From assembly GCF_058153355.1 (NCBI RefSeq), contig NZ_CM177019.1: DNA of 64,000 bases. One strand, given 5' to 3'. The notes below the pieces were generated by a model. The model did no database searches. It was not told the origin of the DNA and worked only from the letters and a program-made list of their open reading frames with translations. This document shows, in pieces, positions 7,912 through 53,527 of this stretch. How positions within the stretch are numbered: the first letter of the stretch is position 1; the number at the start of each line of letters is the position of its first letter. The translations under genes and the position numbers were made by a program.

Positions 7912-8901
7912 TTAGCCGCCAATGTACGATAAGTTTTGCGTAATACCGGTGTTGTTTTGATGCAGGAAATGGGTCTGTTTCTTCTCCCGCAGCGCCGCTG
8001 AAATACGCGCTTCCAGCGCCTGTTGCTGGGTATCGTCTTCCAGCAGATCGCGCAGGTTAACGCCGCCTTCACCGAACAGGCAGAGATGGAGTTTACCAAT
8101 GGAGGAGACGCGCAGGCGGTTGCAAGTGGCGCAGAAGTCTTTTTCATACGGCATGATAAGGCCAATCTCTCCGGCGTAATCCGGATGACAAAAGACTTGC
8201 GCGGGACCGTCGCTGCGTTGACGTAATTGGTGGATCCAGCCGCGACGCAGTAACTCGTCACGCAGAACCTGACCAGAGATGTGATGCTTACGGAAGAGCT
8301 CGCTGCCCTCGCCCGTTTCCATCAGTTCGATGAAACGCAGCTGGATGGGGCGATGCTGGATCCAGTTCAGAAAGGTGTCGAGTTGGTGATGATTAACATC
8401 ACGCATCAGCACGGTATTGACTTTGACCTTCTCAAAACCGGCCTCAAATGCAGCATCGATCCCTGCCATGACCTGATTGAATTTATCCTGTCCGGTAATA
8501 GCATGAAACTGGCGAGCGTCGAGGCTATCGACACTCACGTTGATACCAGTAAGACCAGCATCACGCCAGTTCGCTACATCTCGTTCCAGACGGTAACCAT
8601 TGGTGGTGACCGCAATCTGGCGGATAGCGTCGTTTTCTCGCACAGCGGCGATGATATCGGTAAAGTCGCGACGCAAAGACGGCTCTCCGCCCGTCAGACG
8701 GACTTTTTCGGTGCCCAGACTGGCGAAGGCGCGCGTAACCCGGCGAATTTCATCGACGGTCAGAAAGCCTTTATTGGTGACGCCGCTCGGTTTGTAGCCA
8801 TCCGGCAGGCAGTAGGTGCAACGGAAGTTGCACACATCGGTAATCGACAGGCGCAAGTAGTAAAACTTACGCGCAAATGCATCAGTCAGTTGTGAAGCCA
8901 T
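7912..8901 (-). CDS. moaA: GTP 3',8-cyclase (radical SAM)
   Basis: 329 aa from MASQLTDAF...; CxxxCxxC radical-SAM motif (CNFRCTYC); ORF-track start at 8982 is an upstream extension. Confidence 0.9.
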
Positions 8902-9060
8902 GTACACCTTTCCAGATACGGGAGGCGAAATCATTTCTTCCTTCGCCCTGGTGGCAATCTTTGTAAGCATTGTCACGGCCAAAGCACCGTATCAGTTGAC
9001 CCAGGTGCAGAGGCTAGAGTGTTTAGTGGTTAAGCCGATACTAGCGTGTAAACAGGATTT
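8902..9060 (-). ncRNA. moaA leader, expected location of the molybdenum-cofactor (Moco) riboswitch
   Basis: Established knowledge that the E. coli moaA 5' UTR carries the Moco RNA motif; motif not verified base by base here. Confidence 0.45.
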
Positions 9061-24572: not shown

Positions 24573-24623
24573 TCGATGCGATGTCGGGTAGCAGCGATTC
24601 ATTACTGTCTCGCCGCCCCCTAA

Positions 24624-24657
24624 GAACGGTACGTGCGAGTTTCCCCGCATACCGCTC
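24624..24657 (-). ncRNA. Group II intron domain V
   Basis: Minus strand GAGCGGTATGCGGGGAAACTCGCACGTACCGTTC, 34-nt hairpin matching the domain V consensus with compensatory pairing. Confidence 0.75.
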
Positions 24658-24663
24658 AAGCCT

Positions 24664-26406
24664 TTATAAGCCTCCACCTTGTGGGAGACCAGCGTCATTA
24701 CTATGTAGTTGTCGATGGCAGTTGGGATGGAGTAGGACTAAATTGCTCACATCATCGCTACCGCCAAGAGATTTCTTGAGCAAATGATGAACATTCCATC
24801 CTGTATCGCGATTAATCGGTTGCTCACATAAAGGGCAGCGCGATCCTTGCCTTTTCCATATAGCGAGAATCCTTTTCTGCCCCTGTTGGGATTTCTTCCA
24901 TGAGTAGTCCAGCCTTCTTTCGAAGTATGTTTCCCACTCGGGATCATATGGATTTGCCGTTCCCTTTATTTTTATATAGCGATTAATATGGATGTCGCTG
25001 GCCCGGGACAGAACATATTTCCTACCCTCCGGATCGACTCCATAAAATCGACCATGACACATTTTTATTGTCGTGTGGTACTTTCGGAAGATCCATCTCC
25101 GGCCTTTGCCGGGATGTCTCCTTCTGCACCACTGCCAGATTTTGCGCCAGATTTGGTTGTCGACATAGTTAAATGTCTCTGCCGATGCTACATGTTGGTG
25201 ATAGTTTGCCCACCCGGTGATGATTGGATTAAGCAGATTTATTAGCACCCATGCAGGAACCGTTCGGTTACCTTCAATAGTCTCTCTGATCTTGCTAAGA
25301 AATTGTTTAACGTTTTTCTTGGCTGGTCTGATTATGAGTTTTCTACCGAAGCGTCGGACGTGCTGCCCAAGGAAATCAAATCCGTCAGTAATGTGAGTGA
25401 TGACCGTTTTCTCTTCGGATAACGTCAGCCCTCTTTCTGCAAGAAATGATTTCACCAACGGAAGAACATTCTCCTCCAGAAGTTCTTTCGACTTTCCGGA
25501 AATGATGAAATCATCAGCATACCGGACGAAGTGAACCTGATGTTTCCTGAATGTTTTTGAGCGTTTCGGACCAAAGCGATTTTGCAGCAGTCTTTCCAGT
25601 CCATCCAGGGCCATGTTTGCCAGAACTGGAGATATGATTCCTCCCTGGGGTGTACCCGAGAGAGTTTTGCTGAATATGCTTTTTTCGATGATCCCGGCTT
25701 TCAACCAATTACGGAGTATTTGCTTGTCCATAGGAATATTTTCAAGCAGCCACTCGTGGCTAATGTGTTCAAAGCATCCTTTAATATCGCCTTCCAGAAC
25801 CCATTTCGAGGCGTTCCGGGAACTATACATATTACATACCTGTTGAATGGCGTCAGCCGTACATCGCGCTGGTCTGAAACCATAACTGTTGTGATCTGCA
25901 TTAGTTTCCGATACAGGCTCCAATCCCAGCAGATGCAGGGCCTGCATTGCCCTGTCAAGCATGACGGGGATTCCTAATGGTCTTTTCTTGCCATTAGATT
26001 TGGGTATAAAAACTCTTTTTAGCGGTAGGGGCTTGTACCCTTTTCGCCTGAGTTTGAATATCGCTTCCCATTTTGATTCTGGAGTACTCCAGATTTGACC
26101 ATCAACTCCGGGGGTTTTACGCCCGCTATTTTCCGTAACTCGTTTCACCGCCAGTGCTCTGGCGCTGAATGAGCGAACCAGCAATCGTTGCAATCTACCG
26201 ACTGTACGCCATTGCTGGTTACATGCCGCCTTTGCGATTCTTGTCTGTATGGTTTTAACGTGTTGATGGCATTTCTTCCAGTTAATGGAATGCCAACCTT
26301 TTCCGTTGATGACCGCAGTTACATTGTTAGATGTAATTTTCATACATGTCATCCAAAGAAACCTTCGCAGATGTTTCGCAATTAAAGACCAGATGGAAGT
26401 CAGCAC
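24664..26406 (-). CDS. Group II intron-encoded protein: reverse transcriptase / maturase / HNH endonuclease
   Basis: 580 aa; RT motifs incl. YADD (FVRYADDFIISG); maturase X region; C-terminal HNH-like motif (HHLLKKSLGGSDDVSNLVLLHPNCHRQLH). Confidence 0.9.
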   Translation of the reverse strand: MLTSIWSLIAKHLRRFLWMTCMKITSNNVTAVINGKGWHSINWKKCHQHVKTIQTRIAKAACNQQWRTVGRLQRLLVRSFSARALAVKRVTENSGRKTPGVDGQIWSTPESKWEAIFKLRRKGYKPLPLKRVFIPKSNGKKRPLGIPVMLDRAMQALHLLGLEPVSETNADHNSYGFRPARCTADAIQQVCNMYSSRNASKWVLEGDIKGCFEHISHEWLLENIPMDKQILRNWLKAGIIEKSIFSKTLSGTPQGGIISPVLANMALDGLERLLQNRFGPKRSKTFRKHQVHFVRYADDFIISGKSKELLEENVLPLVKSFLAERGLTLSEEKTVITHITDGFDFLGQHVRRFGRKLIIRPAKKNVKQFLSKIRETIEGNRTVPAWVLINLLNPIITGWANYHQHVASAETFNYVDNQIWRKIWQWCRRRHPGKGRRWIFRKYHTTIKMCHGRFYGVDPEGRKYVLSRASDIHINRYIKIKGTANPYDPEWETYFERRLDYSWKKSQQGQKRILAIWKRQGSRCPLCEQPINRDTGWNVHHLLKKSLGGSDDVSNLVLLHPNCHRQLHSNDAGLPQGGGL

Positions 26407-26941
26407 GGTTTCCCGTTAAGGCAAATATTGAACCTCTATCCGCACGATTACAGTCCGGCTTTCGCTTTTTCCATCCTCCTTTACCCGCATTCTCATCAGT
26501 TTGCCTTACGGTGCCCCTGCCACTAGGGCGAGAATTCGGGCTTACCAAGTTCCGACCAACATACAAAGAACGGGTTAGGTTCTGTCTATCCGCCGGGGGA
26601 GTTATTGTCCATGTATTCCCACTACGAACAGGAATAGCCTTACCCCTTACCTTTTGGTGCAAGCCTATCAGCATCTTTGGCTCGTTCTCTGTTACGACGT
26701 TTAACGACAGTTCACTATGTTAACCATACCGCCCAGCCTAGCGCTCTCGCCGCATGATGCTTGTAGCGATCAGGTTTTCTCACGATTAACTGAAGCAATA
26801 TTTGCTAAGCTACATTGTCCCAAGGGCTTCAGACAGAGCCGTTACCAGCTTTGCCTGCCTCAGTAGGCTACAACTAATGGAATAGTTGGTTTTATATAAA
26901 TAATTTATCAAAACAATATGTTGGACGACTTCTTGTCGCAC

Positions 26942-27105
<164 letters not shown>

Positions 27106-50791: not shown

Positions 50792-51034
50792 CTTACCATC
50801 TCGTTTTACAGGCTTAACATTAAAACCGACATAAGCGTGATATTCGCTATTATCGGCATGATTTGTTTTATATGCTAAACAAGATAGTCGAATGGTGGGG
50901 AAAAGTCACTCGAAATACGTATGAGATGACGAATGCCACACTTTGCGTCTTATTCCTCCGACGTAGAGTCGTTTACGCAGCAAGCGCGGAGTATGTCATC
51001 AGGGTCAAGAATTGAAATTGAGAGATGCCTGAAT

Positions 51035-51061
51035 AGCAAAAAAGCGCCTTTAGGGCGCTTT
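51035..51061. terminator. Bidirectional terminator-like hairpin (copy 1)
   Basis: aaaaaagcgcc-ttta-gggcgctttttt; identical copy at 51196..51222. Confidence 0.6.
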
Positions 51062-51195
51062 TTTACATTGGTGGGTCGTGCAGGATGACTCACTTCGCTC
51101 GCCCTTCGGGCCGTCGCCGCAAGCGGCTCCGTTGTTTCGCTGCGCTCTACTCGAACCTGCAGCAGGTTCGAATCTTTGAATATCGCAGATAGCAA

Positions 51196-51222
51196 AAAAG
51201 CGCCTTTAGGGCGCTTTTTTAC
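51196..51222. terminator. Bidirectional terminator-like hairpin (copy 2), directly 3' of the last tRNA-Lys
   Basis: Identical to the hairpin at 51035..51061. Confidence 0.6.
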
Positions 51223-51224
51223 AT

Positions 51225-51300
51225 TGGTGGGTCGTGCAGGATTCGAACCTGCGACCAATTGATTAAAAGTCAACTGCTCTACCAACTGAGCTAACGACCC
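51225..51300 (-). tRNA. tRNA-Lys (anticodon UUU)
   Basis: Minus strand GGGTCGTTAGCTCAGTTGGTAGAGCAGTTGACTTTTAATCAATTGGTCGCAGGTTCGAATCCTGCACGACCCACCA; corresponds to lysZ or lysQ. Confidence 0.9.
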
Positions 51301-51446
51301 ATACGGGTGTTACCTGAATGATTTCTACTCGGGACCAATCTTTAATATTGGTGGATCGTGCAGGATGACTCGCTTCGCTCGCCCTACGGGCCGTTGCTGG
51401 CGCAACGTTATCCTTCACGCTTAACATCTGAGTTTGATGTTAAAAC

Positions 51447-51522
51447 TGGTGGGTCGTGCAGGATTCGAACCTGCGACCAATTGATTAAAAGTCAACTGCT
51501 CTACCAACTGAGCTAACGACCC
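51447..51522 (-). tRNA. lysY: tRNA-Lys (anticodon UUU)
   Basis: Identical tRNA-Lys sequence; symbol by order in the operon. Confidence 0.85.
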
Positions 51523-51525
51523 GAG

Positions 51526-51601
51526 TGGTGGGTGATGACGGGATCGAACCGCCGACCCCCTCCTTGTAAGGGAGGTGCTCTCCCAGCTGAGCTAATCACC
51601 C
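51526..51601 (-). tRNA. valZ: tRNA-Val (anticodon UAC)
   Basis: Minus strand GGGTGATTAGCTCAGCTGGGAGAGCACCTCCCTTACAAGGAGGGGGTCGGCGGTTCGATCCCGTCATCACCCACCA. Confidence 0.85.
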
Positions 51602-51651
51602 GATACTGCGCTGGATACTACAAACTACTTCCACCGAACCCACCGCATTAG

Positions 51652-51727
51652 TGGTGGGTCGTGCAGGATTCGAACCTGCGACCAATTGATTAAAAGTCAA
51701 CTGCTCTACCAACTGAGCTAACGACCC
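51652..51727 (-). tRNA. lysW: tRNA-Lys (anticodon UUU)
   Basis: Identical tRNA-Lys sequence. Confidence 0.85.
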
Positions 51728-51729
51728 GG

Positions 51730-51805
51730 TGGTGGGTGATGACGGGATCGAACCGCCGACCCCCTCCTTGTAAGGGAGGTGCTCTCCCAGCTGAGCTAAT
51801 CACCC
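51730..51805 (-). tRNA. valT: tRNA-Val (anticodon UAC)
   Basis: Identical tRNA-Val sequence. Confidence 0.85.
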
Positions 51806-51940
51806 GATACTACGCTGGATACTACAACTAACTAGGTTAGTGGTGGGTCGTGCAGGATGACTCGACTTCGTCTCGCCCTTCGGGCCGTTGCTGACGCAAC
51901 GTTATCCTTCACGTTTTACTACCGCTTCCACCTTAGCGAT

Positions 51941-52016
51941 TGGTGGGTCGTGCAGGATTCGAACCTGCGACCAATTGATTAAAAGTCAACTGCTCTACCA
52001 ACTGAGCTAACGACCC
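51941..52016 (-). tRNA. lysT: tRNA-Lys (anticodon UUU)
   Basis: Identical tRNA-Lys sequence; first gene of the operon. Confidence 0.85.
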
Positions 52017-52180
52017 ACTTTTTCGTTGCTTTCGGTTTGTTTGATATCCCGTGGCAACGGCGGCATATATTACTGATTTCAGACTTGAGCGCAACAAAAA
52101 TTTCGATGTAGATCACTCAACTGCTTATGATTCGCACGACACGACCAGAAATAATGCGACTTCTGGTCGTGTGTTATGCA

Positions 52181-52972
52181 TTACATCGCGTTCAGACGTT
52201 TTTGCGCCTGTTTTGCGCCATCAGTCCCAGGGTATTTACTGATAACCTGCTGATATACAGCTTTCGCTTTTGCGGTGTCACCTTTGTCCTGCATGATGAC
52301 GCCGACTTTAAACATCGCATCTGCAGCCTTCGGTGACTTCGGATAGTTTTTCACTACCGAAGCAAAATAGTACGCCGCATCATCTTTTTTACCCTTGTTG
52401 TAGTTTAACTGACCCAGCCAATAATTGGCGTTTGGCAGATAAGTTGAATCAGGGTAATTTTTGATGAAATTCTGAAATGCCACCATTGCGTCATCCTGGC
52501 GGGATTTATCCTGCACCAGCGCAATAGCTGCATTGTAATCCGTGTTTGCATCACCGCTTTTCACCGGCGCGCCAGCATTCGCAGTACCAGCATCAGCTGT
52601 CGGCGTCGTTGATGCCGCCGCACCGCTTTGATCGCCGCTGGTTGATTGCGCCGCTGCACCACCGCTGCTGAGGCTATCGATCTGCAACAGGATCTGCTTT
52701 TGCCGCTCCACGACCTGATTCAGTTGATACTGATTTTCCTGAATCTGACCACGCAGGGAATCAATATCGGATTGATTATCAGAGAGTTGTTGCTGGAGTT
52801 GGGTTAAAAGCTGGCTGTGAGCATTAGAAATACGCTCAAGTTGAGTGACGCGGTCTTCGACCGAGCCTGAGCCGACACTACTGATTGGTGCCTGAGCAAA
52901 AGCGGCCCAGGGGGCCGCTATACCAACCAGTAACGACAGACTCAATAGTTGATGTCTGAAGTTACTGCTCAT
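52181..52972 (-). CDS. cpoB: Cell division coordinator CpoB (YbgF), TPR protein
   Basis: 263 aa with signal peptide; last gene of the tol-pal cluster. Confidence 0.9.
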   Translation of the reverse strand: MSSNFRHQLLSLSLLVGIAAPWAAFAQAPISSVGSGSVEDRVTQLERISNAHSQLLTQLQQQLSDNQSDIDSLRGQIQENQYQLNQVVERQKQILLQIDSLSSGGAAAQSTSGDQSGAAASTTPTADAGTANAGAPVKSGDANTDYNAAIALVQDKSRQDDAMVAFQNFIKNYPDSTYLPNANYWLGQLNYNKGKKDDAAYYFASVVKNYPKSPKAADAMFKVGVIMQDKGDTAKAKAVYQQVISKYPGTDGAKQAQKRLNAM

Positions 52973-52981
52973 GCAATTCTC

Positions 52982-53527
<546 letters not shown>

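Follow-up and report, generated by a model that had tools for sequence, protein, structure and literature searches.

The Escherichia coli lysT operon in a six-gene allelic form with three tRNA-linked repeats

Introduction

The RtT RNA (rttR) of the tyrT-tyrV operon was reportedly described by Bosl and Kersten in 1991, and to our knowledge a stable processed RNA has been shown for RtT of the tyrT type only. A role in the stringent response that was once proposed for rtT was later retracted (PMC8144298). The first description of tRNA-linked repeats (TLRs) is due to Egan and Landy (1978), and a catalogue by Rudd followed (1999), according to Stenum et al. (2021; PMC8144298). TLRs combine a conserved core with an 18-19 bp 3' end that is identical to the end of the upstream tRNA or rRNA, and they are without known function (PMC8144298). 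The K-12 chromosome carries 22 TLRs at ten loci, with one to five per locus (PMC8144298), the lysT operon being the locus with five copies. The elements rrA, rrB and rrF, which belong to rrnA, rrnB and rrnD, follow 5S rRNA, copy its 3' end and bind Hfq and CsrA in vitro; the 19 TLRs of tRNA operons scored below 0.01 in a prediction of CsrA binders (PMC8144298).

The lysT operon of K-12 is transcribed as one precursor of roughly 1.1 kb, from which RNase P removes the terminator and then frees the tRNAs in the 3'-to-5' direction, with RNase E helping (PMC4176162). In Northern analysis, probes to the lysT spacers picked up precursors in strains mutated for RNases, and for the wild type a stable spacer RNA is not reported (PMC4176162). 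A role as small RNA is accordingly unsupported for the modules that lie within the operon.

Here we compare these systems with a region of contig NZ_CM177019.1 (assembly GCF_058153355.1), of which a stretch of 64,000 nucleotides, referred to below as the window, was analysed. The explanation that best accounts for the region, and that taken whole we regard as highly probable, is that it is the lysT operon with its known TLR modules, from which one 208-bp unit has recently been lost. Both the operon and the repeat family were already known and copy-number polymorphism is common in E. coli, and there is nothing new at the locus.

Results

Positions 51035-52016 of the window are the E. coli lysT stable-RNA operon, which lies on the minus strand and runs from downstream of cpoB towards nadA. 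It is flanked by cpoB and pal on the right and by nadA and pnuC on the left, and in an alignment to K-12 (NC_000913) it matches lysT-lysQ with the same flanks. The tRNA-Lys(UUU) and tRNA-Val(UAC) genes that alternate between cpoB and nadA are identical to those of K-12. ARAGORN found six tRNAs in the 64 kb, all on the minus strand and all at this locus, and neither ARAGORN nor Rfam at permissive E-values detected a seventh tRNA or a pseudo-tRNA anywhere in the window. The four tRNA-Lys(UUU) genes are identical to one another, as are the two tRNA-Val(UAC) genes. A sequence-only reading of the region had counted the same four and two genes and had set them against seven in K-12; ARAGORN and Rfam agree with the first statement, and ARAGORN together with the K-12 alignment upholds the second. 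The flanks, promoter-leader sequence, tRNAs and terminator are thus the same as in the K-12 lysT operon, which differs in having seven genes and five TLRs where the window has six and three. Having six genes does not set the locus apart from the lysT operon, because forms with six, seven and eight genes all occur in E. coli, and the six-gene form in the window is an allelic state of that operon.

In the direction of transcription, the operon leader and promoter region (52017-52190, minus strand like all features below) extends from the cpoB stop to lysT and is identical to K-12 over the aligned columns. A simple promoter scan gave no match to a sigma-70 consensus within 52017-52190, and by homology to K-12 the promoter would lie in this interval. 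The first gene is the equivalent of lysT (51941-52016), called by ARAGORN and by the Rfam tRNA model (79.2 bits) and identical to K-12 lysT. The equivalents of valT (51730-51805), lysW (51652-51727), valZ (51526-51601) and lysY (51447-51522) follow, each identified by ARAGORN, Rfam and the K-12 alignment. The 35-nt unique spacer that forms the valT leader (51806-51840) is unchanged with or without the TLR that precedes it, as seen in modular maps of 13 strains. The spacer between lysW and valZ is 50 nt long (51602-51651), and it is here that K-12 has an additional 99-bp repeat, TLR2, visible both in alignment columns 552-650 and in the maps. The K-12 alignment and the maps also define a 48-nt unique spacer (51301-51348), the leader of the last tRNA-Lys(UUU) gene (51225-51300), and this last gene appears to be the product of a merger of lysZ and lysQ, given a single 208-bp gap relative to K-12, N96, EC42405 and R32_14_1F.

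Two identical terminator hairpins lie at the end of the operon. T1 (51194-51220), a hairpin with a U-run, is an exact match and identical to the K-12 sequence after lysQ; T2 (51038-51064), likewise an exact match, is contained in a perfect 54-bp direct repeat (51033-51086 and 51189-51242, 156 bp apart) that spans both hairpins. The sequence GCGCC-CTAAA-GGCGC-TTTTTT is seen at both and is identical to the K-12 lysT terminator. A simple terminator scan calls neither, probably since the A/T runs extend the stem, and a terminator function for T1 and T2 is suggested by the identity with K-12 and by the literature, in which the Rho-independent terminator of the lysT operon is described (PMC4176162).

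The 18-mer ATCCTGCACGACCCACCA, which on the minus strand is the 3' end of tRNA-Lys, is present in seven copies with at most one mismatch, four of them in the tRNA-Lys genes and three in spacers (51069-51086, 51349-51366 with one mismatch, and 51841-51858), where none is expected by chance. The features that had been noticed from the sequence are therefore real and far beyond chance, but three of the coordinates were 2-5 nt off and the strand, which is minus, had not been stated. The three spacer copies of the tRNA-Lys 3' end stood, with 51349 and 51841 placed correctly and the third placed at 51064, 5 nt away from its actual start at 51069. The hairpin had also been recognised as duplicated, and its duplication is exact, but it had been put at 51035-51061 and 51196-51222, and the duplicated segment is longer than the hairpin, at 54 bp.

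The three spacer modules are tRNA-linked repeats, which are modelled in Rfam as RtT (RF00391). TLR1 (51841-51940, 100 nt) begins at the base after the CCA of the lysT equivalent and ends with an 18/18 copy of ATCCTGCACGACCCACCA; TLR3 (51349-51446, 98 nt) begins in the same manner after lysY and ends with a 17/18 copy; and the terminal TLR (51069-51193), which is of the full-length RtT type, follows the last tRNA-Lys and T1, lies between the two terminators and again ends with an 18/18 copy. All three score above the curated gathering score of this covariance model, which is 45 bits: the terminal TLR reaches 48.0 bits over model positions 1-130, and TLR1 and TLR3 reach 60.6 and 54.2 bits when, as in the full-length score of the internal modules, part of the upstream tRNA is taken as the 5' portion, the module alone giving a 5'-truncated match of 41.3 bits. 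In control searches the K-12 lysT operon gave five RtT matches at the expected places, a strain without TLRs gave none, and the tyrT locus gave 133-138 bits. The body of the modules contains a core, AACGRCCCGWAGGGCGA, that is common to the window modules and to TLRs found behind Tyr, Arg and Pro tRNAs. PGAP annotates the homologous terminal element as 'RtT sRNA' in N96, BW2952, EC42405 and many other E. coli; it labels the terminal module only, with a note referring to tyrT. That the spacers carry copies of the tRNA-Lys 3' end had been rightly read from the sequence; the membership of the modules in a known repeat family had been missed.

Like the TLRs of K-12, the window modules lie directly downstream of a tRNA in a stable-RNA operon, carry an 18-nt copy of the tRNA 3' end and share the conserved core. 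They differ from them in number only, the window keeping three of the five (TLR1, TLR3 and the terminal TLR), with the terminal copy being a rare allele. With RtT (rttR) of tyrT-tyrV they share the Rfam family, the core (…AACGNCCCGAAGGGCGA…GAGTMATCC…) and a predicted architecture in which a 5' arm would pair with the copy of the tRNA end. In both cases terminal units can repeat in tandem, with a period of 178 bp at tyrT and of 156 bp at the lysT locus of some strains. However, RtT at tyrT copies the 3' end of tRNA-Tyr whereas the window modules copy that of tRNA-Lys, the RF00391 scores of the window modules (48-61 bits) are far weaker than those at tyrT (133-138 bits), and the Lys TLRs inside the operon, with a length of about 100 nt, are short and are without the T-arm-like 5' part. 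The modules also contain small open reading frames, namely an Arg-rich 35-aa antisense frame and sense frames with RQQRPEGR that resemble K-12 Tpr; the resemblance arises because the nucleotide core is conserved.

In the fold of the internal Lys TLRs, a 5' arm, CGUGAAGGAU, pairs with AUCCUGCACG of the tRNA-end copy through 9 of 10 possible pairs. Both internal modules fold better than shuffled controls, with z-scores of -2.5 for TLR1 and -3.1 for TLR3, against only -1.4 for the terminal TLR, in which most pairs of the outer stem are non-standard in cmscan and the outer stem fits poorly. The 5' arm changes with the host tRNA, being GGGGAAGGAT for Tyr, CGTGAAGGAT for Lys and CAGGGAGGAT for Arg, which agrees with the outer stem of the Rfam model; a control in which 5' arms were swapped discriminates weakly, as the common AGGAT:ATCCT already provides half of the pairs.

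Alignment of the window to K-12 shows two gaps, one of 99 bp that corresponds to TLR2 between lysW and valZ, and one of 208 bp that corresponds to one tRNA-Lys, TLR4 and a 33-nt spacer between the lysZ and lysQ equivalents. The position of the 208-bp gap is ambiguous within the 76-bp identical tRNA-Lys repeat. Alignment to K-12, which had been suggested as the means of locating the missing gene, therefore gave a clean answer, a loss of 208 bp between the lysZ and lysQ equivalents. The earlier statement that a seventh gene is gone was right, but the five TLRs of K-12 and the absence of the TLR between lysW and valZ had escaped notice. The missing TLR2 is a separate and common polymorphism. N96 and EC42405, the strains closest to the window, differ from it by the 208-bp gap and by 9-10 substitutions in 3 kb, and by nothing else; the flanks of N96 are 99.7% identical to those of the window. 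EC42405 and R32_14_1F carry the rare terminal-TLR allele of the window, and R32_14_1F differs from the window by the 208-bp gap and by a second 156-bp terminal unit of its own. These comparisons of sequence point to a seven-gene ancestor of the N96/EC42405 type, from which the six-gene state arose when one 208-bp unit was recently lost. Because the ends of the gap fall within identical 76-bp tRNA-Lys genes, we infer that the loss may have come about by unequal homologous recombination or by slippage.

The layouts of other E. coli genomes place this loss in a wider context. Denoting tRNA-Lys(UUU) as K, tRNA-Val(UAC) as V, a TLR as R and a terminator hairpin as T, the window reads K R V K V K R K T R T (six genes) and K-12 MG1655 reads K R V K R V K R K R K T R T (seven genes), to which BW2952, a K-12 derivative, adds one further K R unit (eight genes), a gain that has thus taken place in a derivative of K-12. 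Six genes are also found in O157:H7 ATCC 35150 (K V K V K R K T) and in FDAARGOS_1262 (K V K V K K T), the latter having no TLR. Seven-gene layouts take several forms: K V K V K K K T in 33F4, K R V K V K R K R K T in MRE162, the same followed by a terminal R T in N96 and EC42405 (K R V K V K R K R K T R T), and K R V K V K V K T, with three Val genes, in 14EC007. E500002, EECO1006 and R32_14_1F, with seven genes each, have two terminal R T units of 156 bp. Complete E. coli genomes have six, seven or eight genes at the locus and differ by whole repeat units, which makes plausible the earlier suggestion that the repeats drive changes in copy number. Each R follows directly after CCA and ends in the 18-nt repeat, and the next unique spacer is the same with or without R; therefore the alleles differ by exactly one R and one repeat.

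The locus was typed across genomes with a query consisting of the flanks only, the span between them giving the locus length; BLAST with the whole locus was dropped, as the repeats join pieces unpredictably. The flanks identified the locus as one place in 5,407 of 5,426 complete E. coli genomes. In a spread sample of 59 genomes the length of the locus took more than 20 different values between 3,948 and 4,815 bp, none of which equalled the 4,301 bp of the window. Individual units were counted in the 5,426 genomes as lower bounds, since megablast needs an exact word of 28 nt. On this basis the 33-nt lysZ-lysQ spacer is present in at least 4,969 genomes (92%), with 8.4% lacking a match as the window does, TLR1 in at least 3,546 (65%), a repeat of the TLR2 type in at least 2,310 (43%) and TLR3 in at least 4,055 (75%). 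The terminal TLR is present as the K-12 allele in at least 3,240 genomes (60%) and as the allele of the window in at least 9 (0.2%).

The exact layout of the window was not found as one full-length, high-identity match among the 5,426 complete E. coli genomes, which leaves two readings, a rare variant of recent origin and, with lower likelihood, a collapse during assembly. In the latter case an assembler would have merged two near-identical K-R units and the six-gene layout would not be biological, a reading with which that search result is compatible, as are the facts that the nearest relatives all have seven genes and that the gap has precisely the extent of a single repeat unit, with identical 76-bp repeats at its borders. 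We nevertheless consider it unlikely that the layout arose in this way. The unit with the 33-nt spacer is also lost in the same 8.4% of complete genomes, closed O157:H7 chromosomes among them; the 5' halves of TLR3 and TLR4 are not alike, and a collapse would have had to pass over unique sequence; and all other repeats in the window assemble cleanly. The recent biological loss of one unit remains the preferred explanation of the six-gene layout.

A scan for the TLR core in one genome per species returned at least 133 matches, chance matches in high-GC taxa included. Among the matches listed (133), 49 have a tRNA on the same strand within 400 nt, and in 48 of these 49 the tRNA lies upstream. 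The host tRNAs among the matches listed are Lys(UUU), Tyr(GUA), Arg(ACG), Arg(CCG), Pro(CGG) and Pro(UGG), the taxa among them comprise many Enterobacterales as well as Gilliamella, Marinobacterium and Amphritea, and in nearly all the listed cases the 3' end of the host tRNA recurs at the end of its TLR. A 3' end matched to the host tRNA is a known hallmark of TLRs, and it is seen here across genera. Citrobacter has TLR1 at the orthologous Lys-to-Val junction, and a similar Lys-TLR junction is present at a contig end in Pluralibacter. The terminal T-R-T unit occurs in Klebsiella, Pantoea, Mixta and Erwinia, in some of them as tandem arrays of 156 bp. As other genera have TLR1 and the terminal unit at orthologous places, the TLR-less alleles of E. 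coli are best read as deletions.

The opposite polarity is very unlikely. Under it, the pattern of TLR presence and absence in E. coli would have come about by recent insertion of a mobile TLR element, with duplication of the tRNA 3' end in the process, and not by deletion between direct repeats. Such insertions would fit the observation that a TLR-bearing allele exceeds its TLR-less counterpart by precisely the TLR and one 18-bp repeat, and the same core lies behind at least five tRNA types among the matches listed, each with its own 3' end, which implies that the core must once have moved between operons. However, the orthologous placement of TLR1 and the terminal unit in Citrobacter, Klebsiella, Pantoea and Erwinia indicates that these elements predate E. 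coli and that their absence is derived, no transposase, integrase or reverse transcriptase is associated with the TLRs, and each TLR position has its own diverged 5' half, unlike recent copies of one source.

The proposal, made from the sequence, that the terminal module (51069-51193) and the second terminator are the decayed remnant of a seventh tRNA-Lys gene deleted here could draw on the perfect 18-nt tRNA-Lys 3' end, followed by the same terminator as that of the real last gene, and on a T-arm-like GCAGGTTCGA segment, but it is refuted by the alignments to K-12 and BW2952, which with all seven and with eight genes, respectively, have the same module and duplicated terminator after the last tRNA-Lys, and it has next to no probability left when the module is present in two copies in some strains and in other genera, with tandem 156-bp arrays in some, and the missing gene is wholly explained by the 208-bp gap elsewhere.

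Discussion

Deletion of one 208-bp unit from a lysT operon of known composition, which we favour for the window, can be set within a simple picture of how such an operon would behave. By analogy with K-12, the internal TLRs would be transcribed within the polycistronic precursor and discarded once RNase P, RNase E and exonucleases have set the tRNAs free. Read-through of T1 would be the only source of the terminal TLR, a situation that has its parallel in the T1-TLR-T2 arrangement of rrnA, rrnB and rrnD. There, too, the end of the stable RNA is duplicated before T2 (PMC8144298), and expression of rrA, rrB and rrF would likewise need read-through of T1. At the level of DNA, the 76-bp tRNA-Lys genes, the 18-bp end copies and the 54-bp repeat of tRNA end plus terminator would all be substrates for unequal recombination or replication slippage, and whole units would therefore be gained and lost. 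Judged from the genome comparisons, the demonstrable consequence of the repeats is this genomic one, the gain and loss of whole units.

A more far-reaching interpretation, which we put forward as a doubtful one, is that TLRs, instead of being inert debris in the spacers, could imitate the acceptor/T-arm minihelix of the tRNA that hosts them, their 5' arm changing in step with the copied 3' end, and that they could have spread actively to the 3' side of five or more tRNA types in Gammaproteobacteria. Their presence or absence, with three of five kept in the window, could then tune precursor processing or the yield of the tRNA-Lys and tRNA-Val next to them, or it could reflect an undescribed copying mechanism aimed at the T-loop.

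Beyond annotation the locus matters little. The spacer modules of the lysT operon merit annotation as TLR/RtT, and the natural alleles with and without TLRs could serve for testing effects on tRNA processing or dosage. The copy number of tRNA-Lys at the lysT locus is a common, repeat-driven polymorphism of E. coli, with six to eight genes, and a count that departs from that of K-12 is not unusual.

Unit gain and loss at the lysT locus

The terminal tRNA-linked repeat (TLR) of the window (51069-51193, minus strand) departs from the K-12 allele at several positions, and its allele found matches in only 9 of the 5,426 complete E. coli genomes searched. Identical copies are carried by EC42405, a bovine strain from France, and by R32_14_1F, from a goat in the USA.

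Other E. coli strains differ in the number of units that they carry at this locus. In BW2952, a K-12 derivative, the lysT locus (NC_012759.1, 680953-685767) holds eight tRNA genes, six of them for tRNA-Lys, and exceeds that of MG1655 by one 208-bp unit comprising tRNA-Lys, TLR and spacer. By this comparison the unit was gained inside laboratory K-12 lineages, unless the extra copy reflects an assembly difference. In strain 14EC007 a duplicated Val-Lys unit brings the tRNA-Val genes to three, and in E500002, EECO1006 and R32_14_1F the terminal unit of TLR and terminator, 156 bp long, is present twice in tandem, an arrangement that recalls the 178-bp repeats after tyrV. Searches specific to individual spacers and TLRs also matched a few plasmids, and a tRNA-Val/tRNA-Lys pair like that of the lysT operon lies on a 50-kb E. 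coli plasmid (NZ_CP098226.1, 20408-20599).

Genomic context of the window

The window is E. coli-like and is without its own entry among the 5,426 complete RefSeq E. coli genomes, where its top match across 24 kb has 98.0% identity; for the flanks of the lysT locus the closest genome is N96, at 99.7% identity. A group II intron occupies 24583-26889 (minus strand), with Rfam domains at both ends: Intron_gpII at 24583-24659 and group-II-D1D4-7 at 26742-26889, both on the minus strand. For a 24-kb query across the intron, coverage reaches only 90% in the nearest complete E. coli genomes, which is consistent with an insertion that these genomes would lack. Immediately adjoining the 5' end of the intron is a match to naRNA4 (CssrE, a nucleoid-associated, REP-derived ncRNA; 26947-27017, minus strand; Rfam, 71.9 bits). 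Strong Rfam matches to a Moco (molybdenum cofactor) riboswitch (8889-9033) and to the CpoB/ybgF intercistronic RNA thermometer (52943-53081), both on the minus strand, are as expected for this chromosomal region.

Predicted small ORFs in TLRs and the likeness of TLRs to tRNA

Small predicted ORFs within the TLRs of the window include an Arg-rich one of 35 aa in antisense orientation (MTHFARPSGRRRKRLRC..., 51085-51192, plus strand) and two in sense orientation (51837-51899 and 51325-51405, both minus strand). The sense ORFs contain RQQRPEGR or RQQRPVGR, motifs that echo K-12 Tpr (…CRRQRPEGRSAQR), a likeness that arises because the nucleotide core is conserved.

Among the matches listed (loci L020-L127 in other genomes), TLR cores lie downstream of host tRNAs for Lys, Tyr, Arg(ACG), Arg(CCG), Pro(CGG) and Pro(UGG); the genomes that carry them belong to many Enterobacterales as well as to Gilliamella, Marinobacterium and Amphritea. 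In these matches the 3' end of nearly every TLR is that of its own host tRNA, and the 5' arm changes with the host. This 5' arm is similar to a fusion of two tRNA segments, the 5' strand of the acceptor stem and the 5' strand of the T-stem, and TLRs thus look like tRNA minihelices carrying a large insert in the T-loop.
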